NCBI GenBank assembly: GCA_017500825.1
Contig: JAFVYB010000024.1
Span: forward strand, 17,193-81,192
DNA length: 64,000 nucleotides
Reading direction: 5' to 3'
DNA from: Myxococcaceae bacterium
Lineage (GTDB): Bacteria; Myxococcota; Myxococcia; Myxococcales; UBA5297
Shown here: positions 5,107-58,985 of the stretch, in pieces
How the letters are laid out: the number at the start of each line of letters is the position of its first letter
Position numbering within the stretch: the first letter of the stretch is position 1
Position numbers and translations under genes: made by a program
The notes under the pieces: generated by a model
The model's input: only the letters and a program-made list of their open reading frames with translations
Database searches by the model: none
What the model was told of the DNA's origin: nothing

Positions 5107-8100
5107 TCAGCCGGCAAGCAGCGATTCGTCGGCAGTGCCCCGTTCGCTCGATTTTGACGCGCGTCGCGGTTTGGCCGAGGCCCCGAGATCCGCGTCGATG
5201 GCGGCGACGGTCGACTTGCCGTTCGACTCACCCAGCGTCTCCGCCAACCGCTCGTGCGCCACCGACATGAAGAGCTTGATGCGGTTGATCTGGTTCGATT
5301 CGCAGGCGCCCGGGTCGTAGTCGATGGCGGCGATGTTGGCGTTGGGGCGGACGCGCTTGATCTCCTTGATCACGCCCTTGCCGGTGATGTGGTTCGGCAG
5401 ACAGCCAAAGGGCTGGAGGCAGAGGACGTTGGGCGCGCCGTGGTCGATGAGCTCCAACATGTCGGCGGTCAGCAGCCAGCCTTCGCCCGCCTGAAGTCCG
5501 GTGGTGATGACCTGCGCCGCCTTGCGCTCCAGATCGTCGATGTGCGCCACCGGCATGTAGCGCGTGCCCTCCAGCGCCTCGCGCAGCGCGTCGCGAAGCC
5601 CTTCCAAAACGCCCACGCTGAGCCGGTTGCTCAACTGCGCCGCCACGCTGCCGCCGTGATGCCTGCCCTGATAGACGGCGTCGCTCAGGCAGTAGAGCAG
5701 GAAGTCGTTGAAGTCGGTGACCACTGCCTCGCCGCCCTCCTGCTCGATGACGCGCACCGCGTTGTTGTTCGCGTCCGGGTGATACTTGAGCAGGATCTCG
5801 CCGACGACGCCGACGCGCGGCCTGATTTTGCCGTCGCGCGGGATGGCCTCGAAGTCGCGCACCATCTGTCCGAGGTGCCGCCGAAAGACATCGATGCGCG
5901 TTCCGGGCGACTCGACGTTGCTGCGCGCGCGCCTGAGCCAGAGCGCGGTCAAAGCGTCGGTCTCGCCTTTGCGCACCTCGTAGGGCCGCGTGGCGTTGGA
6001 CAGGCGCATCAGCATGTCGCCGTAGAGGCCCGCGAGCAGAAGGCGTTCGGCGAAGCGCAGCGTGACCTCAAAGCCGGGCTGTTGGTCGCCGCGGCCGCTG
6101 TTGAGCGAGAGCACCGGCACCTGGGGATAGCCCGCCTCGACGAGGGCCTTGCGCAGGAGCGGGATGTAATTCGTCGCCCGGCACGGACCGCACGTCTGCG
6201 TGAGCAGCATCGCCGTCGTGTCCGGGTCGTAATCGCCGCGCGTGAGCGCCTGCAGCTGTTGACCGATGACGACGAGCGCCGGGTAGCAGGCGTCGTTGTG
6301 AACGTATTTGAGCCCCAGCTCGATCGCAGCCCGGTCCACCTTGGGCAGGATGTCGAAGCGGTAGCCCGAAGCGCGGAAGGCCCCCTCGTAGAGGTCGAAG
6401 TGCAGCGGCATCATCTGCGGGGCGAGGATGGTGTGGGTGCGCCTCATGCGAGTGACGAAGGGGACGCGGCCGCGCGTGTTCGCCAGATACGTCGCCGGCA
6501 TCGACTCGCCTGTCCCCGCGCGAGAGCCCGCTTCCCGGTCTTCGCCGTCCTCGACCTGAACGCCGCCGAGCTGTCCCCCGCGCACAGCCGCCATCAGCGA
6601 TCGGATGCGAATGCGCGCCGGCCCCAGGTTGCCGCCCTCGTCGATCTTGATCAGCGTGTGCAGCTTGCCCGCGCCATCGAGGATGCGATGCGCCTCGTCT
6701 GCCGTCACCGCGTCCACGCCGCAGCCAAACGAAGTCAGCTGGACGAAATCCACATTCGGCAGCCGACCGACCAACGCCGCCGTCCGATAGAGGCGCGCGT
6801 GGTAGGTCCACTGGTTGACGATATCGAGCTCGGGCATGTCTGCCTGCAGATGGGCGATCGAGTCCTCGCTGATCAGCGCCGCGCCCAGCGAGACGACGAG
6901 CTCGTCGAGGCCGTGATTGACGAGCGGATCGACGTGGTAGGGCCGCCCGGCGAAGACGATGCCGTGGCCGCGTTTTTCCCTCACCCAGGCCAACGCGCGC
7001 TCACCCTCGCGGCGCAGTTCGGCCCGATAGCGTTCCAGTTCGCGGCGCGCCTTCTCGATGGCCGAGAGGAGTTCACGCTCCGGGATCTGGAAGAGCGGCG
7101 AGAGGATCCTGGCGAGCGACTTGGCGTGCGCCGGATTCACGCAAGGCGAGAAGTAGCGAACGCCCTCCTCCGCGAGCGCCTCGGTGTTGAGGCGGATGAC
7201 CTCGGGGTAGCCGCTGACGACCGGGCAGTTGAAGCAGTCGCGCGCGCTCGGGTGCTCCTTCGTCTCGCGCGGCACGGTCGGATAAAAAATCGTCTTCACG
7301 CCGCGCCTGAGCAGGTCGGCGATGTGTCCGTGGGCCAGCTTGGCCGGGAAGCAGACGGTCTGTGAGGGCATCGACGACAGCCCCAAATCGTAGAGCGCCT
7401 TGCTCGACGGCGACGAGAGCGTCACGCGAAAGCCGAGCGCGTCAAAGAGCGTGAACCAGAAGGGGAAGCTCTCGAACTGATTGAGCACGCGCGGAATGCC
7501 GATCTCGCCGCGCGGCGCGCGTTCCAGAGGCCGAGGCTCGTAGTCGAACAGCCGCTTGTTCTTCCACGCGTAGAGGTTGGGGGGGCGGTTCGTCAGTTCG
7601 AGCTTTTTGCCCGCGCCCTTCTCGCAGCGGTTGCCGGAGATGAAGCGCCGCCCGTCCGAGAAGCGGTTGATCGTCAGCAGGCAGCGGTTGCCACACCCCT
7701 GACAGCGCTGGGTTTTGGAGGTGGCGCTCAGCGCGCGCAGCTCGTCGAGCGAAAGCAGGCGGCTGGCGGGCAGGTCGCTCCCTTTGGTGTTCGCGAGCCG
7801 GACCTCGTCGCGGGCGAGCAGCGCCGCGCCAAAAGCCCCCATCAGGCCGGAGATCTCCGGACGAATCAGCGGGCGCCCGAGCAGCCACTCCATGGCGCAC
7901 AGAAGCGCGTCGTTGGCGAAGGCGCCGCCCTGGACGATGACGCGGTTGCCGAGTTCCTCCGGGTCGCGGATGCGCAGCACTTTGTAGAGGGCGTTGCGCG
8001 CGACCGAGTAGCAGAGCCCCGCCGCGATATCGCCGATGGCCGCGCCTTCCTTCTGCGCCTGCTTGACCTTCGAATTCATGAAGACGGTGCAGCGCGAACC

Positions 8101-9543
8101 GAGATCGGTCGGCCGCCGCGAGACGAGCGCGCTCTCGACAAAGTCGCGCAGGGGCAGGCCCAGGCTCTCGGCGAAGGTCTCCAAAAATGCGCCGCAACCG
8201 GCCGAGCAGGCTTCGTTGAGAGCGATGCCGACGATGCGTCGATCGCGCACCTTCAGGCACTTCATGTCCTGGCCGCCGATGTCGAGGACGTAGGTCGCGT
8301 CCGGAACGAGCTCACAGGCCGCGCGGCAGTGGGCCACAGTCTCCACCTCGGCCAAGTCGATGCCAAAGGCGACCTGCGCGAGGTCGGCGCCATAGCCGGT
8401 GGCGGCGGCTCGGCGAATGACGACGCCCTCGGGGAGTTTCTCCAGCAACGCCGCGAGCGAACGGCGAATCACCTCCAGCGGCGCCCCGCGATTGCGCTCA
8501 TACCAACTGTGCAACAGCTCACCGGCGTCGCTCAGGAGCACCGCCTTGACCGTGGTCGAGCCGATGTCGATGCCGAGGAAGGCCTCGCCGCGATAGCCCG
8601 CGAGATCGCGCTTTTTGGCCAGCTGGCGAGCGTGGCGCTCCTCAAACGAAGCGCGCTGCGTCTCGGTCTCAAAAAAGGGCGGCAGTGGCGGCGCTTCGAC
8701 AGGCGTCTCCCGGGCGCTCTGGGCGGCGCGGCGCGCCAAATCTTCCAGTGAGTGAACCTCTGCCCCAGCCTCGATGGCCGCGCCCAACGCGACGGTGAAC
8801 TGCGCGTCCGGCGGACAGACGACATCCTCGTCAGAGAGTCCCAAAGTCTCGACGAAACGCTTTTTCAGCTCGGAGAGGAAGTGCAGCGGCCCGCCGAGAA
8901 AGGCGATCTTGCCCTTGAGCGAAATGCCGCAGGCCAGTCCGCCAATCGTCTGGTCGACGACCGCCTGAAAAATCGAAGCGGCGATGTCCTCGCGCCGGGC
9001 GCCCTCGTTGATCAGCGGCACGATGTCGGTCTTGGCGAAGACGCCGCAGCGAGAGGCGATGGGGTAGAGCGTCGTGTGTCCCTCTGCCAGCGCGTTGAGC
9101 CCAGGCGCGTCCGTCTGCAAGAGCGCCGCCATCTGGTCGATGAAGGCGCCCGTCCCGCCCGCGCACGTCTCGTTCATGCGCAGCTCCATGCCCTGGCTCA
9201 GACAGAGGATTTTGGCGTCCTCGCCGCCGAGCTCGATCGCCACGTCCGTCTGGGGCGCGACGGCCATCAGCGCCCGCGCCGCCGCCATCACCTCCTGGAG
9301 AAACGGCAGCCCCAACACGTCGGAAATCGACAGCGCGCCGGAACCAGTGATCGCCCCGCGCACCTCCAGCCCCGGGTGACGCTGCGACAGATCCGCCAGG
9401 ATCGCCGCGAGCGTCTGACGAACGGCCGCGCCATGCCGCTGGTAGATGGCGTCGATGATCTCGCCGTCGGGCGAGCGCAGGACTGCCTTGGCAGTGGTCG
9501 AACCGATGTCGAGGCCCAGCGTGCAAGTTGTGGCGCGCTTCAT
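5107..9543 (-). CDS. acyl-CoA dehydratase activase (BadF/BadG/BcrA/BcrD ATPase) x2 fused to 2-hydroxyacyl-CoA dehydratase-like domain (YjiL/YjiM-type fusion), 1478 aa
   Basis: Two ASKHA activase modules (LGLDIGSTTAKAVL... and LGIDIGSTTVKAVLL...), a Cys-rich C-x-x-C region and an HgdB-like C-terminal half. The RBS is adjacent to a palindrome upstream. Confidence 0.8.
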   Translation of the reverse strand: MKRATTCTLGLDIGSTTAKAVLRSPDGEIIDAIYQRHGAAVRQTLAAILADLSQRHPGLEVRGAITGSGALSISDVLGLPFLQEVMAAARALMAVAPQTDVAIELGGEDAKILCLSQGMELRMNETCAGGTGAFIDQMAALLQTDAPGLNALAEGHTTLYPIASRCGVFAKTDIVPLINEGARREDIAASIFQAVVDQTIGGLACGISLKGKIAFLGGPLHFLSELKKRFVETLGLSDEDVVCPPDAQFTVALGAAIEAGAEVHSLEDLARRAAQSARETPVEAPPLPPFFETETQRASFEERHARQLAKKRDLAGYRGEAFLGIDIGSTTVKAVLLSDAGELLHSWYERNRGAPLEVIRRSLAALLEKLPEGVVIRRAAATGYGADLAQVAFGIDLAEVETVAHCRAACELVPDATYVLDIGGQDMKCLKVRDRRIVGIALNEACSAGCGAFLETFAESLGLPLRDFVESALVSRRPTDLGSRCTVFMNSKVKQAQKEGAAIGDIAAGLCYSVARNALYKVLRIRDPEELGNRVIVQGGAFANDALLCAMEWLLGRPLIRPEISGLMGAFGAALLARDEVRLANTKGSDLPASRLLSLDELRALSATSKTQRCQGCGNRCLLTINRFSDGRRFISGNRCEKGAGKKLELTNRPPNLYAWKNKRLFDYEPRPLERAPRGEIGIPRVLNQFESFPFWFTLFDALGFRVTLSSPSSKALYDLGLSSMPSQTVCFPAKLAHGHIADLLRRGVKTIFYPTVPRETKEHPSARDCFNCPVVSGYPEVIRLNTEALAEEGVRYFSPCVNPAHAKSLARILSPLFQIPERELLSAIEKARRELERYRAELRREGERALAWVREKRGHGIVFAGRPYHVDPLVNHGLDELVVSLGAALISEDSIAHLQADMPELDIVNQWTYHARLYRTAALVGRLPNVDFVQLTSFGCGVDAVTADEAHRILDGAGKLHTLIKIDEGGNLGPARIRIRSLMAAVRGGQLGGVQVEDGEDREAGSRAGTGESMPATYLANTRGRVPFVTRMRRTHTILAPQMMPLHFDLYEGAFRASGYRFDILPKVDRAAIELGLKYVHNDACYPALVVIGQQLQALTRGDYDPDTTAMLLTQTCGPCRATNYIPLLRKALVEAGYPQVPVLSLNSGRGDQQPGFEVTLRFAERLLLAGLYGDMLMRLSNATRPYEVRKGETDALTALWLRRARSNVESPGTRIDVFRRHLGQMVRDFEAIPRDGKIRPRVGVVGEILLKYHPDANNNAVRVIEQEGGEAVVTDFNDFLLYCLSDAVYQGRHHGGSVAAQLSNRLSVGVLEGLRDALREALEGTRYMPVAHIDDLERKAAQVITTGLQAGEGWLLTADMLELIDHGAPNVLCLQPFGCLPNHITGKGVIKEIKRVRPNANIAAIDYDPGACESNQINRIKLFMSVAHERLAETLGESNGKSTVAAIDADLGASAKPRRASKSSERGTADESLLAG

Positions 9544-13395: not shown

Positions 13396-13893
13396 TCAGC
13401 GACTGAAAATCTTTTTGAGATCCTCGTCGATCTCTTCCTCGGTGCAACCTTTGGCCAGGCTCAATTCCTTGATCAAAAGCCCGCGCACGGTGTCGAGCAT
13501 TTTGCGCTCGCCAAAAGAGAGGTCCTTGTCGCCTTTGAGGCGCGACAGGTCGCGAAGCACCGCCGCCAGCTTGAGAATGTCGCCACCTTTGATTTTTTCC
13601 ATATATTCGCGATATCGCCGATTCCAGGTGGTGGCGTCGACCGACATGCCCTTTTCCCGCAGGACGGCATAGACATCCTTGACTGTCTGCTCGTCGACAA
13701 TGCCGCGCAGGTTGGCCTTTTCAAGCTTGGTGAGCGGAATCATAATCCGCATGCCATTCTCAAGAATTTTGAGAATGTAAAAGGATTGCCGCTGGCCGGC
13801 GACTTCCTTGTGCTCAATCCCGGTGATTTCGCCAACACCTTGTCCGGGATAAACGACTTTGTCCCCAATCTTGAAACTCTTCAAGGCTTCCAC
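13396..13893 (-). CDS. cdnL: CarD/CdnL family transcriptional regulator (RNAP-binding)
   Basis: FKIGDKVVYPGQGVGEITGIE... is the CarD_CdnL_TRCF N-domain. GTG start at 13893 is preceded by AAGGAG at 7 nt; the ORF-track N-terminal extension has no ATG. Confidence 0.8.
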   Translation of the reverse strand: MEALKSFKIGDKVVYPGQGVGEITGIEHKEVAGQRQSFYILKILENGMRIMIPLTKLEKANLRGIVDEQTVKDVYAVLREKGMSVDATTWNRRYREYMEKIKGGDILKLAAVLRDLSRLKGDKDLSFGERKMLDTVRGLLIKELSLAKGCTEEEIDEDLKKIFSR

Positions 13894-14343
13894 GTCGTTT
13901 GTCTCCTTACTGGTTGAAGTTATTACTAAATTACCAATTCCCTGCAAAAAACGCGGTGCGCTTAGCACATTTTCGACTTTCGGTCAAACACCGAAAATCG
14001 CAAAAGGTTCAACCTTTTGTCTCTTTCGGCGAATGAAGCGGCCCCGCCAACACGATCACAGGGCAACGCATTCCCAAGGCGCCCCTCTGTCAGGACAAAA
14101 ACACGCGAAAGTGGCGCATTCGAGAGGCGACAGCGCGTTTCGAATGCAACCCAAACTAATTTTACACCCAGGCCGCCACGCCGCGTCGCCAAAGCCCAAA
14201 TCCGCTCTCACAAACTGTTTTCGAGTCAGCAATCGCGGACATTTCACGAAGGTTTCTGGCGGATTTGATTCTCAGGCGCGACTCATCCAACAACATTCAA
14301 CGCCATTTGCCCCCCCCCCCAACGCCCATCCAACACCGCACAA

Positions 14344-14361
14344 AAATTAAATCGAGCAAAT
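14344..14361 (+). repeat. AT-rich intergenic box AAATTAAATCGAGCAAAT (copy 1)
   Basis: Exact 18-mer shared with 63879-63896 (reverse strand). 14-16-mer cores recur at 13304-13319 (reverse) and 14418-14436 (variant). Confidence 0.7.
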
Positions 14362-14468
14362 CGAGAGGCGTTTGCCAAACAGTTCGGTCGGCGAAAAAAA
14401 ACATTCAACGCCGCATTAAAATTAAACCGAGCGAATCAATGTTCAACGCGCTGGCGACAAATCACAAC

Positions 14469-15056
14469 TCAGACGGAGAGCGCCTCGCAGGCTGGCAGGA
14501 GTTTGACGCGCGCGGCCTCCAGTCGGTTGACCTCGCGCAAAAAATGCAAACCGGCGCATTTGTCGGAAACGAGCGTTGGCAATGTGGCCATCGAAGCAAA
14601 CGTGCGGTTGGCCTGACTGAAAGCCTCATTGACAAAAACATCGCAAAACGCCGCCAGCGATTCAGCAAAACGCCTGTCATTAAGCGCTTCGCCCGCATTC
14701 ATCGCCAGATTTTCCAAAATCAAAAGATCGCCATCGCCCAAATCCTGAACGAGCTTACGCACGCCGTCGCCCACGCAGTCGTCGGCAAACCGCGCCTCGC
14801 AGCGCAACAATTCGACGAGTCTGGCGGCGGTCGGTTCAATGGTCCGCCCCTCTGACCATCGGCCCCGGGGGTTTCCCTGATGCGTGGCGAGAATAACGCG
14901 CGCGCGCTGATCCAAGGCGTAGCGAATCGTCGGCAATGCCTCCTCAAAGCGGCGATCGTCGGGGACGCCCCGCTTCTGACCGACGGGCAAATCGAGATCG
15001 AGGCGGATGAGAACGCGGCGGCCCGAGAGGGCGACGTTTTTCACTGAGCGGATCAC
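14469..15056 (-). pseudogene. pgk: phosphoglycerate kinase N-terminal domain only (truncated/degenerate pgk)
   Basis: First ~175 aa are collinear with the PGK N-domain (VILATHQGNP.G ... LILENL ... FCDVFVNEAFSQANRTFAS...). The AFGTAHRAHAS motif is degraded to AFSQANRTFAS. A stop falls at the inter-domain hinge. No C-terminal nucleotide-binding domain is present in any frame downstream. The gene lies directly downstream of an intact gap. Confidence 0.6.
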
Positions 15057-15218
15057 GGGAAAACTTCCTGTCTTGCGGCGGCGAGCCTTCAGAGGGCGCG
15101 CGGCTAAAAGCGCTGTGCGTTGAATGGCGTTTGATTCGGGAAAGGCGCGCGAAAAAAGGCCCGCTCATTGTGCTGGAGCGGGCCTCTTGATTGTCTCTTC
15201 AGAGAGACTTTCGCTTTC

Positions 15219-16232
15219 TCAGAAACCGGCGTCGGCCATCAGCTTGCCGAGGTCGACCATGCGGTTGGAGTAGCCATACTCGTTGTCATACCAGGCCATG
15301 ACCTTCACCAGCTTGCCGTCGATCACGTAGGTGTCGAGGGCGTCGAAGGTGCTGCTCGCCGGGCAGTTGTTGTAGTCGATGGAGACGGTCTTCTCCTCGC
15401 TGTAGTCGAGGATGCCCTTGAGCGCGCCTTCGGAGGCGGCCTTCATCGCGGCGTTGATCTCCTCCTTGGTCGCGGCCTTCTCCAGCTCGACGGTCAGGTC
15501 AACGAGCGAGACGTTGGGGGTCGGCACGCGAATGGCCAAGCCGTCCAGCTTGCCCTTGAGCACCGGCAGCACCTCGCCGACAGCCTTGGCGGCGCCCGTC
15601 GTCGTCGGGATCATCGACATGGCACCGGCGCGCGCGCGGCGCAGGTCGGAGTGGGGCAGGTCGAGGATGCGCTGGTCGTTGGTGTAGGAGTGAATCGTCG
15701 TCATCAGGCCCTTCACGATGCCGAAGTTGTCGAGCAGGACCTTGGCGATCGGGGCCAGGCAGTTCGTCGTGCAGGAGGCGTTGGAGACGATGTTGTCCTT
15801 GGCCTTGTCGTATTGGTCGCTGTTGACGCCCATGACGATCGTCTTGTCCGGATTCTTGGCCGGGGCGCTGATGATCACCTTCTTGGCGCCGCGCTCCATG
15901 TGGACCATGGCGTCGTCGCGGCCCTTAAAGATGCCGGTGCACTCAAAGACGATGTCCACGCCCATGTCGGCCCAGGGATAGGTCTTGGGGTCGCGCAGCT
16001 TGAGCAGCTTGATCGACTTGCCATTGATGACGATCGAGTCGTCGGTGTGGGTGACGCAGCCCTTGAAGGTGCCGTGGACGCTGTCGTGCTTGAACAGGTA
16101 GGCCATCGTCTTGGCGTCGCCCAGGTCGTTGATTGCCACGACATCGATTTCGTTCTCGATGCCGCGCTCGTAGATGGCGCGGAGAATGTTGCGGCCGATG
16201 CGACCAAAGCCATTGATAGCGAACTTAGCCAT
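15219..16232 (-). CDS. gap: type I glyceraldehyde-3-phosphate dehydrogenase
   Basis: [19 protein letters not shown]..., [12 protein letters not shown] active-site Cys, full-length 337 aa. Confidence 0.95.
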
Positions 16233-16702: not shown

Positions 16703-17254
16703 TTATTTATTTAAAACATGATAGATATTACAGCGCGAACCATTCATATCATAAAAGATTTTAAACTGCTGAGCCGACTCCATGCGCACCACGCCATTGC
16801 CAGCGATCTGGAAGTATTTCTTTCCGGAACGGGCCTTTTGCAAAAGATCCTGAACGTCAAAGCCTGGCCCCTGATCGCGAATGCTGAACAAAAGACCGCC
16901 CGGACCGAGATGGCCCTTAATATGAATGGGCAAATTGTCGCGGCGACTGTGCGCGTGACAAAAGGCGTTGGACAGCGCCTCGCTGAGGACGCCGCGCTCG
17001 CCGATGAGCTCAAAGCGCAGGTCGCGAATCCATGGCGGAGAGGCCTGCAGGACCTTTCGTTCGGCGATATAAAGCCAATCATAGCCGTTGCGATAAGGGC
17101 TGTTGGCCGCAAAGGGATGGTCTTCGGGAATGAGCTCCCAATCCAAAAAAACGGATTCCGCCTTGATTTGCGCGAGGGCAGTCTCAAGGGTGCTTATGAC
17201 GAACATTTCTTTCTCGGCGTCGAAGATTTTGTCGACAAAACTTTGGGCCGGCAT
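16703..17254 (-). CDS. ATP-binding protein, HATPase_c / anti-sigma-factor-kinase-like (RsbW/SpoIIAB-type fold)
   Basis: SEALSNAFCHAHS (N-box-like), GLLFSIRDQGPGFD (G1/G2-like). The start may be the internal Met at 17206, to avoid a 60-nt overlap with the upstream PHP gene. Confidence 0.5.
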   Translation of the reverse strand: MPAQSFVDKIFDAEKEMFVISTLETALAQIKAESVFLDWELIPEDHPFAANSPYRNGYDWLYIAERKVLQASPPWIRDLRFELIGERGVLSEALSNAFCHAHSRRDNLPIHIKGHLGPGGLLFSIRDQGPGFDVQDLLQKARSGKKYFQIAGNGVVRMESAQQFKIFYDMNGSRCNIYHVLNK

Positions 17255-17877
17255 TGTCCGGCAATAATGGCCTGCGCGAGCGCCTTTTCATCTTGAGGCA
17301 AAAAGGGAAATTCTGTCGCCGCAATGCCGACATTTTCCGGCGCATGCGCGTCACTGCCCCCGGTCATGTGCCAGCCGCGCTCCTGGGCGAGGCTTTTGGC
17401 GCGCTTGCTGTCGTCGCCTTTGGTCATGGAACTGGAAACCTCCAATCCATGAATTCCGAGGCGAATATCGGGAAAATGCTCGGGTGAAAGCATATTGCGG
17501 TAAACCAAGTAGGGATGCGCCCAGATAAGCGCCGCTCCCTGCTCCCGGGCGACATCAATGACCCGCTGAATAGGGCAACCACGCGGTGTCTCCGCCAATG
17601 ATTCCAAACCAAAGGCGAGAATATGCGCATGATCCGCAGAAATCTCGACGCCGCGATAAAGCCGGACACCCTCCACGCCTTCGGATGAACTGTGGATGAG
17701 CTCCTGCAATTCATCTTCGGACCAGAGCATGTCGTGCTCGGTAATAACGCCGCCGCTCAAACCGCGCTCGTGGAGTCTGGAGATAAGCATCTCCGGTTCC
17801 AAAAGCGGGGCACACGGCGAATAGCGCGACGTATGCATATGCAGATCAAGAATGAATCGTCCCATTCGTTCTCTCAA
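17194..17877 (-). CDS. PHP-domain metal-dependent phosphoesterase
   Basis: DLHMHTSRYSPC... and later HP / GGSDAH histidine motifs of the PHP (polymerase/histidinol phosphatase) fold. Confidence 0.7.
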   Translation of the reverse strand: MRERMGRFILDLHMHTSRYSPCAPLLEPEMLISRLHERGLSGGVITEHDMLWSEDELQELIHSSSEGVEGVRLYRGVEISADHAHILAFGLESLAETPRGCPIQRVIDVAREQGAALIWAHPYLVYRNMLSPEHFPDIRLGIHGLEVSSSMTKGDDSKRAKSLAQERGWHMTGGSDAHAPENVGIAATEFPFLPQDEKALAQAIIAGQCRPKVLSTKSSTPRKKCSS

Positions 17878-17946
17878 GATTAAAGGCGCCCCCGAACAAA
17901 TCGGAAGCGCCTTTTAAACAAGGCTTCAAAACAAAGCCTTGGATGA

Positions 17947-18948
17947 TTACCGCAGAACGGGCGCGATCTCGCTCATGGCGTTGTTGAGGCGCATCTTGGC
18001 GAGAGCGATGTTGCCCTCCTTCTCGATCATCATGATGACGTGGAAGTGAGCGCGGCCCTGCGCCGTCACGGTGTAGTCGGTGGCCTCGTTGAGGCAGCGG
18101 GCGAAGGCGTGACCCTTGGGCGCCTCCATATGGATAACCGTCGCGCGACCGACGCCCATGAGCTCGGCGGCGTTCTGGCTCTTGAGGAGGATGTCATTGG
18201 CCAGCGCGGCGACTTCGTTGAGTTTGAGTCCCTGTGGGTTGTTTTGGGCCAAAACCTCGCCTTCGGGCGAAACAATGGCGGCGCCAACAAAACCTTCAAC
18301 GGCCGACAGCTTCTTCAGGATCTTATCCAACTCTTCCATCTCTGCATCTCCTAGGTTGACGATTGTGGGCATGGGGGGAGCTGTTTCTAAGTCCTGTGAA
18401 CCTTCGGACTTGGCCTCCTCGGCGCCAGTGGACGCGTCGGAAGAACCGCTCTCCGGCATTTCAGGCGCGGCTTCTTGAGTCTGGACGGCCTCCGCGCCAC
18501 CGCCGTCCGATTCGGCTGGCACCGAGTCGACGGAAACATTTCCGTTCAACCAATTGTCCAAAAGGACCTCGGTGCTTTGAAAGTTTTCACGCTTAATTCT
18601 GCGTTTTGGGACGGGCAATTCATTGAGCTGGAAATCCTCCTCGCCCAATACTTCATAAAACGCGGGAATGCCTCGCAATTTACCGCTGACAGCATTCCAG
18701 AGCATTCCATCCTCAAAATAGAGAAAGGCGTTTCCTTTTTTGGAGACGACGGCAAAAAGCCCCGTCCTTTTTTCATAGGAAAATCCCCGCAATACATCCG
18801 CGAGTTTTACGCCTTTGGGACAAGCCAACCTCATAAGAACCACCTCTTTTATCCCGATGGCGAACGGGCGATCGCCTCTCTCAATCGTTTTTATCGACCC
18901 GCCGTCATCTGCCTTCGTCTCCCAGACCGAAGGTTGATTTGTCTTCAA
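17947..18948 (-). CDS. DUF4388 (PatA-like N-terminal) + Roadblock/LC7 (MglB-like) fusion protein with acidic linker
   Basis: N-terminal LADVLRGFSYEKRTGLFAVVSKKGNAFLYFEDGMLWNA... is the DUF4388 pattern. C-terminal VEGFVGAAIVSPEGEVLAQ... is Roadblock/LC7-like. An acidic Ser/Glu-rich linker lies between them. Confidence 0.6.
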   Translation of the reverse strand: MKTNQPSVWETKADDGGSIKTIERGDRPFAIGIKEVVLMRLACPKGVKLADVLRGFSYEKRTGLFAVVSKKGNAFLYFEDGMLWNAVSGKLRGIPAFYEVLGEEDFQLNELPVPKRRIKRENFQSTEVLLDNWLNGNVSVDSVPAESDGGGAEAVQTQEAAPEMPESGSSDASTGAEEAKSEGSQDLETAPPMPTIVNLGDAEMEELDKILKKLSAVEGFVGAAIVSPEGEVLAQNNPQGLKLNEVAALANDILLKSQNAAELMGVGRATVIHMEAPKGHAFARCLNEATDYTVTAQGRAHFHVIMMIEKEGNIALAKMRLNNAMSEIAPVLR

Positions 18949-19570: not shown

Positions 19571-19822
19571 GCCTGTTGGAGGCGGTTCGAGATGGGCGAT
19601 TCGAGGCTGTCTTTGAGGGAAAAACCGCTCTGCGGCGTCCCCTTTCCGGCGGCGCTTCTCCCCCTTGCGCGCGAAGTCTGATCTTCTAAAAGGCCGCCCC
19701 CCAACTTCAGGCGGCTGGTCGCTCCCTCTGGAAGCCTGGCGCCTGTCTGCAGGTCGCGGCGCACGGCATCGCGGCCTTGAGCGGGTGGGCCCACGCGCGC
19801 CCGCCACACGAAGGTGTCTTCA

Positions 19823-21469
19823 ATGACAAAGCTGAATTCCCTCTCAGGTTTCGAACGCCGCCGCGGGCCGGTGGTGCTGGTGATTATGGATGGCGTCGGC
19901 TTCGGCAAATACGAGGAGGGCGACGCGGTGAAAGCGGCCAGCACGCCCACGCTGGACGCGCTCCTCAAGGACGCGCCGAACTGCCGGCTCAAGGCGCACG
20001 GCCGGGCGGTTGGGCTGCCCTCGGACGCGGACATGGGCAACTCGGAGGTCGGGCACAACGCCATGGGCGCCGGACGCGTCTTTGATCAGGGCGCATCGCT
20101 CGTTTCCAAGTCGATCACCTCGGGCGACATGTTCGCGGGCAAGGCGTGGCGCGAGGTCGTCGACGGCGCCAAGGCGGACAAGGCGCTGCACTTTCTCGGC
20201 CTGTTCTCCGACGGCAACGTCCACAGCCACATCGATCACCTCAAGGCGATGGTCGAACGGGCCTGCGCGGAGGGCGTGAAGAAAATCCGCGTCCACATCC
20301 TGCTTGACGGCCGCGATGTGGGTGAGACGAGCGCGCTCGATTACGTCATCCCCTTCGAAGCCTTCCTCGCAGAGGTGCGCGCCAAGGGGTGCGACGCCAG
20401 GATCGCCTCGGGCGGCGGGCGAATGTTCATCACCATGGACCACTACGGCGCGGACTGGTCGATGGTCGAGCGCGGCTGGAAGACGCACGTGCTCGGCGAA
20501 GGGCGGCAGTTCGCCTCGGCCCAAGAGGCCATCGAGACGCTGCGCCAGGAGACGGGCGCCATCGATCAGGATCTCGGCGCGTTCGTCATCGCGGAGGGGG
20601 GCGTTCCTGTCGGCGCGATCGAGGACGGCGACAGCGTGGTGCTCTTCAACTTCCGCGGCGATCGCGCGCTGGAAATCACGGCGGCCTTCGAGAGTGGCGA
20701 CGACTTCGACAAGTTCGAGCGCGGTCGCGTCCCCCGCGTCACCTACGCCGGCATGATGGAATACGACGGCGATTTGCACGTGCCGCAGCGCTACCTCGTC
20801 GCGCCGCCCGCCATCGACCGGACCCTCGGCGAATACCTCTGCGCGCTGGGACTGCGCACGCTGGCCGTCTCCGAGACGCAGAAGTTTGGGCACGTGACCT
20901 ACTTCTTCAACGGCAACAAGTCGGGGAAGATCGACGAGGCGCTGGAGGAATACGTCGAGATTCCGTCGGACATCGTCCCCTTCGAGCAGCGGCCGTGGAT
21001 GAAGGGCGCCGAAATCACCGATCGCGTGATCGAGGGCATCGAGAGCGGTCGCTTCGACTTCATCCGCTGCAATTTCCCCAATGGCGACATGGTCGGTCAC
21101 ACCGGCAGCTTCGAGGCGGCGCGCATCGCGGTGGAGACCGTCGACCTGTGCCTCGCGCGCATCGTCAAGGCGGTGAAGAAGGCTGGCGGCGTCCTCGTCG
21201 TCACGGCCGATCACGGCAACGCCGACGACATGTTCGAGCACAAGAAGGACGGCAGCGTGCCCATGGTGAACGGCGTCAGGAAGGTGAAGACGGCGCACTC
21301 GCTCAACCCGGTGCCCTGCGTCGTCTACGACCCCGAGGGGAAGGGCGAATACGGCGCCACGTTGCGTGATGGACTGGGCATCAGCTCGATCGCGGCCACG
21401 GTCATCGAGCTGCTCGGCTACGCGGCCCCCACCGACTACGACCCGAGCGTTCTCGTCTTCGACGCCTGA
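19823..21469 (+). CDS. gpmI: 2,3-bisphosphoglycerate-independent phosphoglycerate mutase
   Basis: VVLVIMDGVGFG..., NSEVGHNAMGAGRV, C-terminal TADHGNAD. ATG at 19823 with aAGGTG upstream is preferred over the GTG at 19814. Confidence 0.9.
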   Translation: MTKLNSLSGFERRRGPVVLVIMDGVGFGKYEEGDAVKAASTPTLDALLKDAPNCRLKAHGRAVGLPSDADMGNSEVGHNAMGAGRVFDQGASLVSKSITSGDMFAGKAWREVVDGAKADKALHFLGLFSDGNVHSHIDHLKAMVERACAEGVKKIRVHILLDGRDVGETSALDYVIPFEAFLAEVRAKGCDARIASGGGRMFITMDHYGADWSMVERGWKTHVLGEGRQFASAQEAIETLRQETGAIDQDLGAFVIAEGGVPVGAIEDGDSVVLFNFRGDRALEITAAFESGDDFDKFERGRVPRVTYAGMMEYDGDLHVPQRYLVAPPAIDRTLGEYLCALGLRTLAVSETQKFGHVTYFFNGNKSGKIDEALEEYVEIPSDIVPFEQRPWMKGAEITDRVIEGIESGRFDFIRCNFPNGDMVGHTGSFEAARIAVETVDLCLARIVKAVKKAGGVLVVTADHGNADDMFEHKKDGSVPMVNGVRKVKTAHSLNPVPCVVYDPEGKGEYGATLRDGLGISSIAATVIELLGYAAPTDYDPSVLVFDA

Positions 21470-53512: not shown

Positions 53513-54166
53513 TCAGGCGCGCAGGGAAGCGATGGCGGCCGCGTAGTCGCTTTGGCCAAAGACGTAGGAGCCGGCCACGAGCACGTTGGCCCCGGCCGAG
53601 AGGAGAAGCGAGGCGTTCTTGTCGCTGACGCCGCCGTCCACCTCGATGTCGATGGAGAGTCCGCGCGCGTCGGCCATCGCCCTCAGGCGACGGATCTTGT
53701 CGAGCGCGCTCTCGATAAAGGCCTGGCCGCCAAAGCCGGGATTGACGCTCATCACGAGCACCATGCCGACTTCGCCCAGAACCTCTTCGACCATGCAGAG
53801 CGGCGTGGACGGGTTGAGGGCGACGGCAGGCATGGCACCGGCGCGGCGGATCTGCTGCAGCGTGCGGTGCAGATGCGGACATGTCTCGGCGTGGACGCTG
53901 ACGCGGTCGGCGCCGGCGGCGACAAAGGCGTCGATGTGGCGCTCCGGCTCGACGATCATCAGGTGGACATCGAGCGGCAAAGCTGTCGAGCGCTTCATGG
54001 CGGCGACGACGGCGGGGCCAAAGGTGATGTTGGGGACGAATCGGCCGTCCATCACGTCGAGGTGGGCCAGGTCGGCGCCGGCGCGTTCGATGGCGCGCAC
54101 CTCGTCGGTGAGGCGGCCAAAATCGGCGGAGAGCAGCGAGGGGGCGATGAGGGTCTGCTGGGACAT
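53513..54166 (-). CDS. rpe: ribulose-phosphate 3-epimerase
   Basis: APSLLSADF...HLDVMDGRFVPN...VMSVNPGFGGQ. ATG at 54166. Confidence 0.9.
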   Translation of the reverse strand: MSQQTLIAPSLLSADFGRLTDEVRAIERAGADLAHLDVMDGRFVPNITFGPAVVAAMKRSTALPLDVHLMIVEPERHIDAFVAAGADRVSVHAETCPHLHRTLQQIRRAGAMPAVALNPSTPLCMVEEVLGEVGMVLVMSVNPGFGGQAFIESALDKIRRLRAMADARGLSIDIEVDGGVSDKNASLLLSAGANVLVAGSYVFGQSDYAAAIASLRA

Positions 54167-54243
54167 GGTGTGGGTTGATCCTGGTCGTGGGCCCGCGCGC
54201 GGCGGGGCGGGTGGAAGGGCGATGTCGGCGGGCGGGGCGCATC

Positions 54244-55716
54244 TCAGCGGCGGATCAGCCGGGCGCCAAAAAAGCCGTCGCAACCGTGGCGGTGCGGATA
54301 GGTGGCGATGAAGGGGCGCGCGGCGTTCTCAATGGGCCAATCGATGGGGTGCGCGCTGTCGGGTGGAACGAGTTCAAGGCCCATGTCGGCGAGCGCGGCG
54401 AGGTGGTCGCTCCCCTCCTCCGGCTCCATGGAGCAGACGGCGTAGACGAGTTGCCCGCCGGGCCTGAGGTAGCGCGCGAGGTTTTGGACGATGGCGATTT
54501 GCAGTTGGGCCATGCGCGCCGGGGCGCTTTCAGGACGGCGGTGGCGGATTTCGGGGTGGCGCCGGAGCGTCCCCAGGCCGGTGCAGGGCAGGTCGGCGAG
54601 GATGAGGTCGAAGGAGGCTTCTTCGAAGGGAAGTGGCGCGCTGGCGTCGGCGGTGGCGCATTCGATTCGCCTGTTCAGTTCCAGTCGCCTCGCCTCCTGG
54701 CTCAGGCGGCGCAGGCGGTGCGCGTGCAAGTCGAGGGCGTGGACCGTGCCCGATTCGCCCAGTCGCTCGGCCAGATGGCACGTCTTCCCCCCGGGCGCGG
54801 CGCAGGCGTCGAGAACGCGCATCCCCGGCTCGACACAAGGCAACAACCCGACCAGCTGAGCCGCCTCGTCCTGAACCTGAAAGAGCCCCTCGGCGAAGGA
54901 CTTGAGCTCGGCGAGGTGGCCGCATCCCTCCAGCGTGAGCCCGACCGGCGAGAGCGCAGTGGCGCGGGCGTCGACACCTTCTTCGGCGAGTCGCTCAATC
55001 AGCGCCTGACGCGACACGCGCGCCGGATTGAAGCGAATGTCGATTTTCGGCGGTTCGTTCTGCGCCGCGCACAAAAGGGCCGTCTCCTCGATGCCAAAGC
55101 GCCGTTCCCAGCGTTCGACGAGCCAGTTTGGCTGCGAATGGGCGATGGCCAGTTTCTCGACCTCTGTCCCCTTGAGCTCGGGCAGGCAGACCATTCGCGC
55201 CAGAGCGCGCAAAAGCGCGTTGACGAATCCCGCGGCGTGGCGATGGCGCGGCAGCTCCTTGACGAGCTCGACGGTCTCGTGAACGGCCGCGTGGGGCTTC
55301 GTCCGCATGAAGAAGAGCTGGTAGGCGCCCAGTCGCAGGGCGGCGCGGACTTCCGGGTCGAGGCGTTCGAGTGGACGCGAGGCGTGAACGGCGATGGCGT
55401 TGTCGAGCGCGCGCTGATGACGGGTCACCCCGTAGACGAGTTCGGTCGCCAGGGCGCGATCGGGCTGGGAAACACCGGGGGAGGACTTGAGCGCCGCGTC
55501 GAGGGCGAGATTGAGGAAGGCGTCTGTGCGTTCGACGCGAATGAGCGTTTGCAGGGCGAGGGCGCGGGCGGTGGTGGACACGGTCGTTTCTCCTGCGGGG
55601 AGGGGGGGGGCCGTCCGAAGCGGGCGGCCTTTTAGGCCCAAGGCGCGCGCTTCCTCGAAGATTTTGTCGGCGCGTTTCCGCGATTTTGACGCGCCCGTTT
55701 TTGACGCCGCAGCCAT
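54244..55716 (-). CDS. rsmB: 16S rRNA (cytosine967-C5)-methyltransferase RsmB/Sun
   Basis: NusB-like N-domain plus SAM MTase (VLDACAAPGGKT). Catalytic Cys region DLPCTGLG...YAVCS. The start is approximate. Confidence 0.8.
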   Translation of the reverse strand: MAAASKTGASKSRKRADKIFEEARALGLKGRPLRTAPPLPAGETTVSTTARALALQTLIRVERTDAFLNLALDAALKSSPGVSQPDRALATELVYGVTRHQRALDNAIAVHASRPLERLDPEVRAALRLGAYQLFFMRTKPHAAVHETVELVKELPRHRHAAGFVNALLRALARMVCLPELKGTEVEKLAIAHSQPNWLVERWERRFGIEETALLCAAQNEPPKIDIRFNPARVSRQALIERLAEEGVDARATALSPVGLTLEGCGHLAELKSFAEGLFQVQDEAAQLVGLLPCVEPGMRVLDACAAPGGKTCHLAERLGESGTVHALDLHAHRLRRLSQEARRLELNRRIECATADASAPLPFEEASFDLILADLPCTGLGTLRRHPEIRHRRPESAPARMAQLQIAIVQNLARYLRPGGQLVYAVCSMEPEEGSDHLAALADMGLELVPPDSAHPIDWPIENAARPFIATYPHRHGCDGFFGARLIRR

Positions 55717-55871
55717 GGGTCGACTGACCGCCCACCGAGCCCACGCCTTTCGCCTTGTCGGAACACCTTTTCGGCCCATCGCTTCGGGGCGTTGTCGCCT
55801 CTGAGAGCGCTGCGCACCGTGCCTCCTCGCAGTCCGTCAACCCGTCACCGACGCCCGCGAAGGAGGCCGCC

Positions 55872-56726
55872 ATGTCGCTCGAAAGTTTTTTGGACGAAGA
55901 ATCCAGCCCGCTCACGCCAGAGGAATGGCGCCAGATGCACGCGCACGTGGTCGACGTGGCGCGGCGGCACCTGGTCGGACGGCGGATCGTCGACCTCTTC
56001 GGCCCGCTCGGCGCAGGCGTGGAGGCAATCGGCCTGACGCAGAGTGTCGAACGCCAGAGAGCCTCTCTCGATGACGAGGAGCAGATCGATGGCGCTCCAC
56101 TCTCGCGGCGCATGGCGCGTTCGCCCAAGTCGATCCCGGTCATCCACCGCGATTTCACGCTGCACTGGCGCGAGATCGCCGCCGCTCACGACAACGGCGT
56201 TCCCCTCGATTTTTCGCCCGCCGTCGAGGCCGCCCTCGCCTGCGCCCGCCGCGAAGACGAGCTCGTCTTTTACGGAGACGAATCGCGCGGCGTTCCCGGA
56301 CTCCTCACCGCCCCGGGCCGCGTTCAGGTGCCCCTCGGCGACTGGCGCGCGCCTTCAGAGGGGCTTTCCGCCGTGGTCCGCGCCGCCGAAGCGCTGCAAC
56401 ACGACAACCCCCTGCCCTACGCGCTCCTCCTCTCGCCGCGGCTCTTCTCGATGCTCCACCGCGTGTTTGGCGACGGCGGCACGCTGGAGATCGACGCCAT
56501 CAGGAGCTTCATCCAGGGAGGCGTCTTCGTCTCCAACCAGCTCGAACTGGAGACAGCGGCGCTCATCGCGCCCGGGCCGCACAACTTCGACCTCGCCGTG
56601 TCCATCGACCTGAGCGTGGCCTACCTCGGCGCCGAAGAGATGGAGCACCCCTTCCGCGTGCTGGAGGCGGTCCTGCCGCGCGTCAAGCGACCGCTGGCCA
56701 TCTGCACCCTCGAAAAAACGCTGTGA
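55872..56726 (+). CDS. family 1 encapsulin nanocompartment shell protein (HK97-fold, linocin M18-like)
   Basis: Collinear with T. maritima-type encapsulin: LTPEEWRQMHAHVVDVARRHLVGRRIVDLFGPLG..., FTLHWREIAAAHDNGVPLDFSPAVEAALACARREDELVFYG..., C-terminal FRVLEAVLP...LEKTL. ATG at 55872 with a perfect AAGGAGG RBS. Confidence 0.85.
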   Translation: MSLESFLDEESSPLTPEEWRQMHAHVVDVARRHLVGRRIVDLFGPLGAGVEAIGLTQSVERQRASLDDEEQIDGAPLSRRMARSPKSIPVIHRDFTLHWREIAAAHDNGVPLDFSPAVEAALACARREDELVFYGDESRGVPGLLTAPGRVQVPLGDWRAPSEGLSAVVRAAEALQHDNPLPYALLLSPRLFSMLHRVFGDGGTLEIDAIRSFIQGGVFVSNQLELETAALIAPGPHNFDLAVSIDLSVAYLGAEEMEHPFRVLEAVLPRVKRPLAICTLEKTL

Positions 56727-58130: not shown

Positions 58131-58985
58131 TCCGGCAACCTCCCCACCGCCACGCGTTCGAGTCCGGCCAGGTCGCGCTCGATTTTGGTCCCGGTGAACC
58201 CCGCCGCCCGCAGCATCTCCAAAAGCGCCGCGCCCTGTCCCTCGCCGATTTCCAGACAAATCGCGCCGCCCGGTTCGAGAAATTCCGGAGCGCCCGCGAC
58301 GATGGTCCGAATGAGGTCGAGCCCGTCCTCGCCGCCGTCGAGCGCCATCGCCGGTTCGCGCCGCACTTCGGGGGCAAGGTTCGCGATCTCGCCGCGCGGC
58401 ACATAGGGCGGGTTGCTGGCGACGAGGTCGAAGCGCCTGCCCGCCACTGGTCCAAAGAGGTCGCCCTGCAAAAACTCGACGCGTTCCGTCAGACCGAGGG
58501 CGCGGGCGTTGTCGCGGGCCACATCGAGGGCGTCTGGCGAGAGGTCGGTGGCGCACAGGCACGCGTTGGGGTGTTCGGCGAGAATCGTCAGGCCCACACA
58601 GCCAGAGCCAGCGCACAGGTCGAGGACGCGCCGCTCGTCATCGCGGTCGCCCAGGAGGACGAGGGCGGCGTCGACGAGGTGTTCCGTCTCGGGGCGCGGC
58701 ACGAGGACGCGCTCGTCGACCTGAAAAACGCGGCCAAAGAACGAGCGTCTGCCGGTCAGGTAGTAGGTCGGCTCGCCAGCGGCGCGGCGGCGGACGAGGT
58801 CGCGAAAGCGCGCGCGCTCGGACTCTTCGAGAGGGCGATCGAACTCGATGTAGAGGCGGACGCGCTCCATTCCGAGGGCGTGGGCGAGCAGAAGCTCGGC
58901 GGTCAGGCGTGGGCTGTCGATGCCCCGGCGCTCGAAAAAGTCGCTCGTCCAGAGGAGCAAGCGCTGGATCGTCCACACTTCTGTC
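58127..58985 (-). CDS. prmC: peptide chain release factor N5-glutamine methyltransferase
   Basis: VLDLCAGSGCVGL and NPPY motifs. GTG start at 58985. Confidence 0.8.

Follow-up and report, generated by a model that had tools for sequence, protein, structure and literature searches.

In the 64-kb stretch of Myxococcaceae DNA analyzed here (the window), the position directly downstream of gap, where sister Myxococcales carry the phosphoglycerate kinase (PGK) gene pgk, is occupied by a shorter gene, PGK_N (14469–15056, minus strand). It encodes a 195-aa protein comprising the N-terminal, 3-phosphoglycerate (3-PG)-binding domain of PGK, the hinge helix and a short tail, without the nucleotide-binding domain. 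To our knowledge, few enzymes are as conserved as PGK, and nearly all PGKs consist of one chain with two domains. We consider it probable, though well short of certain, that PGK_N is a real gene under selection and that its single-domain product, derived from the pgk of this same lineage, is catalytically dead. An initial annotation of this DNA had listed a repurposed single-domain PGK homolog among several possibilities, and this reading is supported by the conservation of the 195-aa length, by purifying selection and by the invariance of the residues that replaced catalytic ones.

The open reading frame (ORF) of PGK_N begins with GTG and contains the blocks LLILENLAMN and CDVFVNEAFSQANRTFAS. 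It matches Pfam PF00162 (PGK) with E = 5e-47, the match being restricted to profile positions 1–176 of 379, and matches PGKs in the PDB with E = 7e-35. It aligns with residues 4–174 of Thermotoga maritima PGK (PDB 1vpe) at ~40% identity. A single PGK domain was detected and no other. The stop codon falls approximately where the first strand of the C-terminal domain (C-domain) would be expected, and in every protein of this N-terminal-domain-only (N-only) type, the likeness to canonical PGK ends at residue 175–179. An AlphaFold2 model built from a 28-sequence alignment had a predicted local distance difference test score of 89.3 and a predicted template-modeling (TM) score of 0.90, and Foldseek superposed it on the N-terminal domain (N-domain) of 1vpe with a TM score of 0.83 and a root-mean-square deviation of 2.6 Å. 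From this model we are confident that PGK_N retains the PGK N-domain fold, so that it shares both sequence and fold homology with functional PGK (PF00162/EC 2.7.2.3). The adjacent gap gene (15219–16232, minus strand) encodes an intact type I glyceraldehyde-3-phosphate dehydrogenase (GAPDH) of 337 aa with Pfam Gp_dh_N and Gp_dh_C domains, and passes TIGR01534 (type I GAPDH; 451.8 bits against a cutoff of 367). The initial description of an ORF collinear with the PGK N-domain beside an intact gap, with a stop near the inter-domain hinge, therefore holds.

That description had also stated that no C-domain follows in any frame, and this proved correct. Searches by tblastn with full-length and partial PGKs (E up to 10) found no PGK C-domain in any frame of the downstream spacer or of the entire window; the C-terminal MgATP/ADP-binding domain is absent from the PGK_N chain itself. 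Across 326 kb of loci from the N-only clade, no remnant of a PGK C-domain or of triosephosphate isomerase (TIM) was detected (tblastn, E ≤ 0.01). A weak tblastn match at 58154–58876 was rejected as a C-domain because the region encodes a PrmC methyltransferase, and a C-domain or tpiA remnant within the spacer was likewise rejected, as neither PGK nor TIM queries matched there.

A truncated enzyme in a single assembly could in principle be an assembly or sequencing artefact that conceals a full-length pgk, whether through an indel at the C11 tract of the spacer, the explanation raised in the initial annotation, or through one at another position. The spacer does contain two homopolymers whose lengths differ between assemblies: the C11 tract (14310–14320, plus strand; a G-run on the gene strand), with 5–11 residues among 11 assemblies, and an A8 tract (14394–14401, plus strand; a T-run on the gene strand), with 7–13 residues in the same set. 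Apart from these two lengths, the spacers of the 11 independent assemblies aligned with near identity. The exact 195-aa sequence is present at NCBI as MBR2978620.1 ("MAG: phosphoglycerate kinase [Myxococcaceae bacterium]") and as MBQ4334862.1, and an identical PGK_N is indexed in 85 blocks of independent assemblies (ENA, Logan, JGI and NCBI). Gene order was the same in all ten places among the matches listed for the identical protein. The same ORF and stop codon thus recur across different studies and assemblers. Because both homopolymers lie 70–160 nt past the PGK_N stop codon and nothing downstream encodes PGK residues in any frame, no indel could restore a full-length enzyme. These results refute an error at the C11 tract, and we regard an artefact of any kind as having a negligible chance of being correct.

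We next consider whether the gene is maintained. A homolog search recovered P0003–P0007, each 195 aa long and 58–77% identical to PGK_N, together with P0002 (78% identical), which was called as 231 aa from an alternative upstream start. A profile search and genome scan added P0078 (locus L116; 54%) and a protein of Myxococcales bacterium UBA1203 (locus L023; 57%), both of 195 aa. The 195-aa length is therefore exact in at least eight lineages, down to 54% identity. All orthologs begin with (V/L)IR(S/T)(V/I)KN from a GTG or TTG start, and the C-terminal tail KLLPACEAL is invariant within the subclade of 74–99% identity. The ratio of nonsynonymous to synonymous substitution rates (dN/dS, Nei–Gojobori) was 0.10–0.38 in 21 of 21 ortholog pairs, with dS of 0.5–2.3; the corresponding ratio of proportions, pN/pS, was 0.14–0.49 for seven pairs (Fisher p from 1e-8 to 1e-27). 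Synonymous sites are saturated or close to it, a divergence over which eight lineages would not have preserved the frame and length of an ORF evolving neutrally. The genome scan placed the 195-aa form in only two GTDB species representatives, and a metagenome scan added one further, partial copy; the family is small, consisting of these two representatives and a handful of metagenomic lineages. Assemblies GCA_031262165.1 and GCA_965347775.1 are among those that carry PGK_N, and the species is abundant in samples such as ERZ27248351 and SRR29277969.

These observations bear on whether PGK_N is a decaying pgk fragment that remains an ORF by chance. Its position in the pgk slot, its truncation, its altered catalytic residues and its faster evolution than canonical PGK would all fit such a fragment. 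However, a pN/pS of 0.14–0.49 with p no greater than 1e-8, the exact length in at least eight lineages, the conservation of the start codon, Shine–Dalgarno sequence and tail, and the invariance of the replacement residues themselves all speak against decay. Synonymous divergence is high enough that a neutral ORF would be broken by now, and it also contradicts the recent spread of a single sequence. None of the signs of a pseudogene, namely dN/dS near 1, variable length and a broken frame in relatives, was seen. We therefore hold the pseudogene explanation to be highly improbable; the substitution patterns indicate that PGK_N is maintained by natural selection. PGK_N instead combines homology to an enzyme, loss of catalytic essentials and conservation, as a pseudoenzyme does, its inactivity being a prediction. 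Of the earlier proposal that pgk was lost or relocated and left a degrading fragment behind, the part concerning the pgk position stands on sister synteny; the part concerning degradation does not, since length, start, ribosome-binding site and substituted residues are conserved.

Comparison with relatives, which the initial annotation had called for, pointed to a likely origin of PGK_N. In the sister Myxococcales loci L024–L027, gap is 69–75% identical to that of the window. In L024 it is followed by a pgk of 393 aa, with all catalytic motifs canonical, and then by tpiA; in L025–L027 it is followed by a full-length pgk of 391–393 aa. The canonical gap–pgk–tpiA arrangement was also found in L011 and L102, the pgk of L011 being split into 240 and 165 aa by what looks like a long-read frameshift. 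PGK_N occupies this pgk slot, with gap directly upstream in the window and in L003, L004, L005, L007, L008, L009, L023 and L116. L010 has a similar layout, with the upstream ORF (a putative gap) cut off, and the adjacency is absent only in L001/L022. The N-only sequences were monophyletic in 50 of 50 neighbor-joining bootstraps and sat on a long stem. On the evidence of synteny, PGK_N most likely arose when the ancestral pgk was shortened in situ. The most economical history has a single such event in the common ancestor of these few uncultured Myxococcota: a gap–pgk–tpiA operon would have lost the part of pgk from the beginning of the C-domain onward, tpiA would have disappeared from the locus, and what was left of pgk, the N-domain, would have acquired its conserved C-terminal tail.

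The truncation appears to have been accompanied by a change in evolutionary rate. Between canonical lineages, gap and the PGK N-domain diverge in step, with identities of 95% versus 91% in one comparison and 78% versus 79% in another. Within the N-only clade, the corresponding values for gap and PGK_N were 95% versus 74–79% and 81% versus 57–64%. By this estimate, PGK_N evolves ~4–5 times faster than a working PGK, indicating that constraint changed after the truncation.

The active site was then examined residue by residue, with canonical positions given in human numbering and PGK_N equivalents mapped by alignment. R38 is a key substrate-positioning residue of PGK. In the canonical enzyme, the 3-phosphate of 3-PG is held by R65, R122 and R170, H62 touches the bridging oxygen, D23 and N25 touch O2, and R65 additionally pairs with D218 of the C-domain in a closure salt bridge (PMC7729029). 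PGK_N keeps D23 (as D20), R38 (R36), H62 (H59) and R170 (R151), that is, four of the seven 3-PG-contacting residues and one of the three phosphate-binding arginines. The basic patch and ligand set of D23, N25, R38, H62, R65, R122 and R170 is thus incomplete, with N25 replaced by D22, R65 by N62 (S or T among relatives) and R122 by A118. Further replacements are G166 by S147, T167 by Q148, H169 by N150 and H172 by F153. In the family alignment (A3), 89 columns are invariant, including D22, Q60, A118, Q148, N150 and R151. The catalytic motif AFSQANRTFAS had been described as degraded, which was not borne out; as Q148, N150 and R151 are invariant across the alignment, it is better termed re-fixed. 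The L63Q change means little by itself, because the resulting "THQ" at the H62 motif also occurs in active PGKs of archaeal type (L115). Taken together, the alignment points to a PGK_N site that has settled into a new and less basic conserved state, not one that has eroded. Given the absence of a nucleotide-binding domain and the retention of only one of three phosphate-binding arginines, PGK_N alone cannot, judging from established PGK enzymology, carry out phosphoryl transfer.

The public name "phosphoglycerate kinase" for MBR2978620.1 is accordingly an over-annotation: the C-domain is lost, the basic patch is incomplete, and the sole NCBIfam match, to the whole-protein model PRK13962, scored 165.7 bits against a cutoff of 883. 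Separately, a 717-bp ENA contig (L113) carries P0083, a complete 199-aa ORF with a PGK N-domain ending in ...GLPAVEALL. This singleton keeps H62, R65, H169 and R170, carries N25D and has F at the R122 position. It lies outside the N-only clade in the tree and may represent an independent truncation.

Although PGK_N alone is predicted to be inactive, it might bind 3-PG or 1,3-bisphosphoglycerate and work in trans with a separate C-domain protein as a split PGK. The most critical substrate-positioning residues (R38, R170, H62 and D23) are kept and invariant. PGK activity should also be needed, because the steps on either side are present: in addition to gap, the window encodes the cofactor-independent phosphoglycerate mutase gpmI (19814–21469, plus strand), 4.7 kb from gap. 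Neither pgk nor tpiA was found in the window. A C-domain search for another pgk returned fragments only, and a full-length search returned the 120 closest canonical myxobacterial PGKs; none of the ten of these that were checked has an accession near MBR2978620, and no full-length pgk was traced to a PGK_N genome among them. The contigs of P0360 and P0356, the only two looked up, belong to no assembly or sample in which PGK_N is known to occur. C-domain-only PGK ORFs do occur on long contigs elsewhere, namely P0252 (187 aa, 316-kb contig) and P0279 (183 aa, 247-kb contig). Against a split enzyme, two of the three arginines that bind the 3-phosphate, R65 and R122, are lost, the former also serving in the closure salt bridge (PMC7729029); no C-domain was found in the 326 kb of clade loci; and a four- to five-fold rise in rate is unexpected for a half that is still catalytic. 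P0252 and P0279, which come from unrelated sources, are unlinked to the clade and may be long-read frameshifts rather than genuinely split PGKs. A split PGK is therefore unlikely in our judgment.

We give still less credence to the broader proposal that the clade has no conventional PGK at all, with PGK_N being either half of a two-piece PGK, whose other half lies elsewhere and is possibly non-homologous or highly diverged, or an accessory of a lower glycolysis that processes the GAPDH product with no classical PGK. If this were so, a glycolytic enzyme that is universal and made as one chain would have been taken apart in a free-living bacterial lineage, and the loss of both pgk and tpiA would have considerable consequences for central metabolism. 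Ten Logan contigs (L103–L112, carrying P0356) encode a pgk–tpiA pair, the PGK being 76% identical to that of the sister lineage, with no gap in the 270–355 bp upstream. In L103 the pair is followed by a small secG-like membrane ORF, and all but one of these contigs break at about the same point. They could represent a relocated pgk–tpiA operon of a related genome; no link to the N-only genomes was established.

Returning to PGK_N as a selected, catalytically dead descendant of pgk, we suggest with low confidence a non-catalytic binding or regulatory role. Since two arginines are lost and one aspartate is gained while R38, R170, H62 and D23 are kept, the remodeled pocket has become less basic, and its ligand may be a small, less charged acidic metabolite akin to 3-PG or glycerate. 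Alternatively, PGK_N might bind a protein partner and serve in regulation or scaffolding; the persistent adjacency of gap makes GAPDH the obvious candidate. Several points weigh against this account of origin and function. The neighbor-joining tree leaves the N-only clade outside the canonical PGKs of Myxococcota, a failure of nesting that is probably due to the long branch, so that the in situ origin is supported by synteny and not by the tree. The proposal of a ligand or partner draws solely on which residues are kept, and the gap adjacency, lost in L001/L022, may be mere inherited synteny.

PGK_N could also be a functional single domain unrelated to glycolytic metabolites, for example a structural or interaction module that cooperates with the machinery of cdnL (the downstream gene) or of RNA polymerase, or with unrelated partners. 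The presence of cdnL downstream throughout the 74–99% subclade, a pocket stripped of much of its positive charge and an invariant C-terminal tail that could be a docking motif would fit this idea. However, cdnL is not directly downstream in L001/L022, L005, L023 or L116, and positions of the former substrate site are among the invariant residues, suggesting that the pocket still matters. We view such a role as a doubtful but serious alternative.

Expression signals around PGK_N were read from the sequence and from intergenic alignments. An intrinsic terminator of gap (GGCCCGCTC, a 9-nt loop, GAGCGGGCC and T6) lies at 15152–15184 on the minus strand. The hairpin and T-run after gap are conserved in L003, L007, L008, L009, L023, L005 and L116; canonical sisters have a GC-rich hairpin at the same site, with the T-run weak or missing. 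It seems that the truncation of pgk was followed by stronger termination after gap. A Shine–Dalgarno-like AGACAGGAAG (15064–15073, minus strand) is located 7 nt upstream of the PGK_N GTG, and AGACAGGAA is invariant in the gap–PGK_N intergenic alignment (window, L003, L007, L008 and L009). PGK_N has a start codon and a conserved ribosome-binding site of its own beyond a strong gap terminator, so it seems to be expressed independently of gap. The gap of UBA1203 (L023, 8689–9858) is ~20 residues longer than the other gaps of these loci (360 aligned columns in tblastn with the 337-aa gap of the window); on visual inspection, the extra length comprises two short putative insertions, ...NAEKDADGKIVKNGS... 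and ...ADRVDDKGEKYGK...

Downstream of PGK_N lies cdnL (13396–13893, minus strand), encoding a 165-aa CarD-like RNA-polymerase-binding protein with Pfam CarD_TRCF_RID and CarD_C domains, which we take to be the CdnL of myxobacteria. Its size and domains fit the myxobacterial CdnL type. The longest CarD-like ORF (190 aa, GTG at 13968) over-extends; the true start is the GTG at 13893, which is preceded by a conserved AAGGAG and gives 165 aa in all relatives. For this reason the non-coding spacer between PGK_N and cdnL, first given as 500 bp (13969–14468), is in fact 575 bp long (13894–14468, minus strand), its non-coding nature being upheld. Its GC content is 0.50, against 0.55–0.70 in the flanks, and it has no similarity to PGK or TIM in any frame. 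The only part conserved in L003, L007, L008 and L009 is the region immediately upstream of cdnL (13894–14005, minus strand). These ~110 nt contain a −35-like TTGACC (13982–13987), a 17-nt gap, TAAGCG (13959–13964), a T-run and the ribosome-binding site AAGGAG, and presumably form the cdnL promoter and leader; a consensus scan did not call a cdnL promoter.

At the other end of the spacer, a species-specific insertion of ~190 bp (14280–14468, minus strand, boundaries approximate) is absent from the 382–400-bp spacers of L003, L007, L008 and L009. It holds a local duplication, with 36-nt direct repeats at 14327–14362 and 14402–14437 that are 83% identical, and the motif GGCGTTGAATG; the direct repeats and C11 tract reported earlier are thus both present. 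We rejected GGCGTTGAATG as a dispersed element or operator, since it is local only and not enriched across the window (13 of 100 shuffles reached the same count), and no tandem array was found by TRF. A structured RNA was also rejected: the spacer had no Rfam match at E ≤ 1, and the distal half, which holds the insert, showed no more folding than shuffled sequences (z = 0.11). Mild structure was seen in the proximal half (z = −2.3), where conservation is limited to the last ~110 nt. The differences in homopolymer length among these assemblies of one species may reflect real hypervariable tracts upstream of cdnL, or sequencing or assembly noise. In L023 and L005, another gene begins within 100 bp after PGK_N. 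By these comparisons, the spacer is unremarkable intergenic DNA that carries an insertion specific to the lineage, and it is not a C-domain relic.

Other genes of the window provide context. A ribulose-phosphate 3-epimerase is encoded at 53513–54283 (minus strand). A 1478-aa protein (5107–9543, minus strand) has two BcrAD/BadFG ATPase domains and DUF2229 ("CoA enzyme activase"), a type typical of the activation of anaerobic radical dehydratases and reductases that hints at an anaerobic lifestyle, and an encapsulin shell protein (Linocin_M18, E = 4e-57) is encoded at 55755–56726 (plus strand). A conserved upstream block at 16703–18948 (minus strand) consists of three genes, whose products are a protein with Roadblock/LC7 and DUF4388, one with a PHP domain and an RsbW-like one with HATPase_c_2. 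In L003, L004 and L007, the latter two genes, after a gene of ~262–303 aa in the matching position, accompany gap–PGK_N–cdnL.

Finally, we compared PGK_N with known systems. Canonical Pgk (EC 2.7.2.3; 1vpe and L024) shares with it the N-domain (40% identity to 1vpe and 49% to L024 over ~177–180 residues), the fold, the slot directly after gap and the residues D23, R38, H62 and R170. PGK_N differs in lacking the C-terminal nucleotide-binding domain of ~200 residues, in the changes N25D, R65N, R122A, T167Q and H169N, in its new conserved tail, in its four- to five-fold faster evolution and in having no tpiA after it. In protein-folding studies, the isolated N-domain of yeast or Bacillus PGK can fold autonomously as a stable unit of ~175–190 residues, which makes a natural stand-alone N-domain plausible; those were laboratory constructs of enzymes with intact active sites, whereas PGK_N is a natural gene.

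The closest analogs are the PGK-like (PGKL) proteins of Kinetoplastea, PGK homologs that have lost residues for catalysis or substrate binding and are for that reason predicted to be inactive; they include short forms of 28 kDa or 270 aa and a truncated Trypanosoma grayi protein that keeps only the 3-PG-binding residues; many carry extra PAS, cyclic-nucleotide-binding or transmembrane domains (PMC7729029). PGKL proteins and PGK_N are alike in being predicted-inactive or truncated PGK homologs, but the former are eukaryotic, of independent origin and often multidomain, and the T. grayi fragment keeps the 3-PG residues that are remodeled in PGK_N. No PGKL protein is described as forming a conserved bacterial family that takes the place of pgk in a gap operon. 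PGK_N shows neither common descent with PGKL nor the PAS, cyclic-nucleotide-binding or transmembrane domains, forming instead a monophyletic bacterial clade beside the myxobacterial PGKs, and so resembles PGKL in kind, not in membership. Our literature searches, within incomplete coverage, turned up no conserved bacterial PGK reduced to its N-domain, the kinetoplastid proteins being the only analogs.

PGK_N would thus show, in bacteria, a pseudoenzyme derived from a core enzyme of glycolysis: a selected, stand-alone PGK N-domain in the pgk slot of a gap operon. The annotation "phosphoglycerate kinase" assigned by the Prokaryotic Genome Annotation Pipeline would make metabolic reconstructions credit metagenome-assembled genomes with a PGK step that PGK_N is predicted to be unable to perform. 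At 195 residues, the protein is tractable for asking which ligand the remodeled 3-PG pocket binds, and the clade offers a test case for whether uncultured Myxococcota have relocated, replaced or lost pgk and tpiA.

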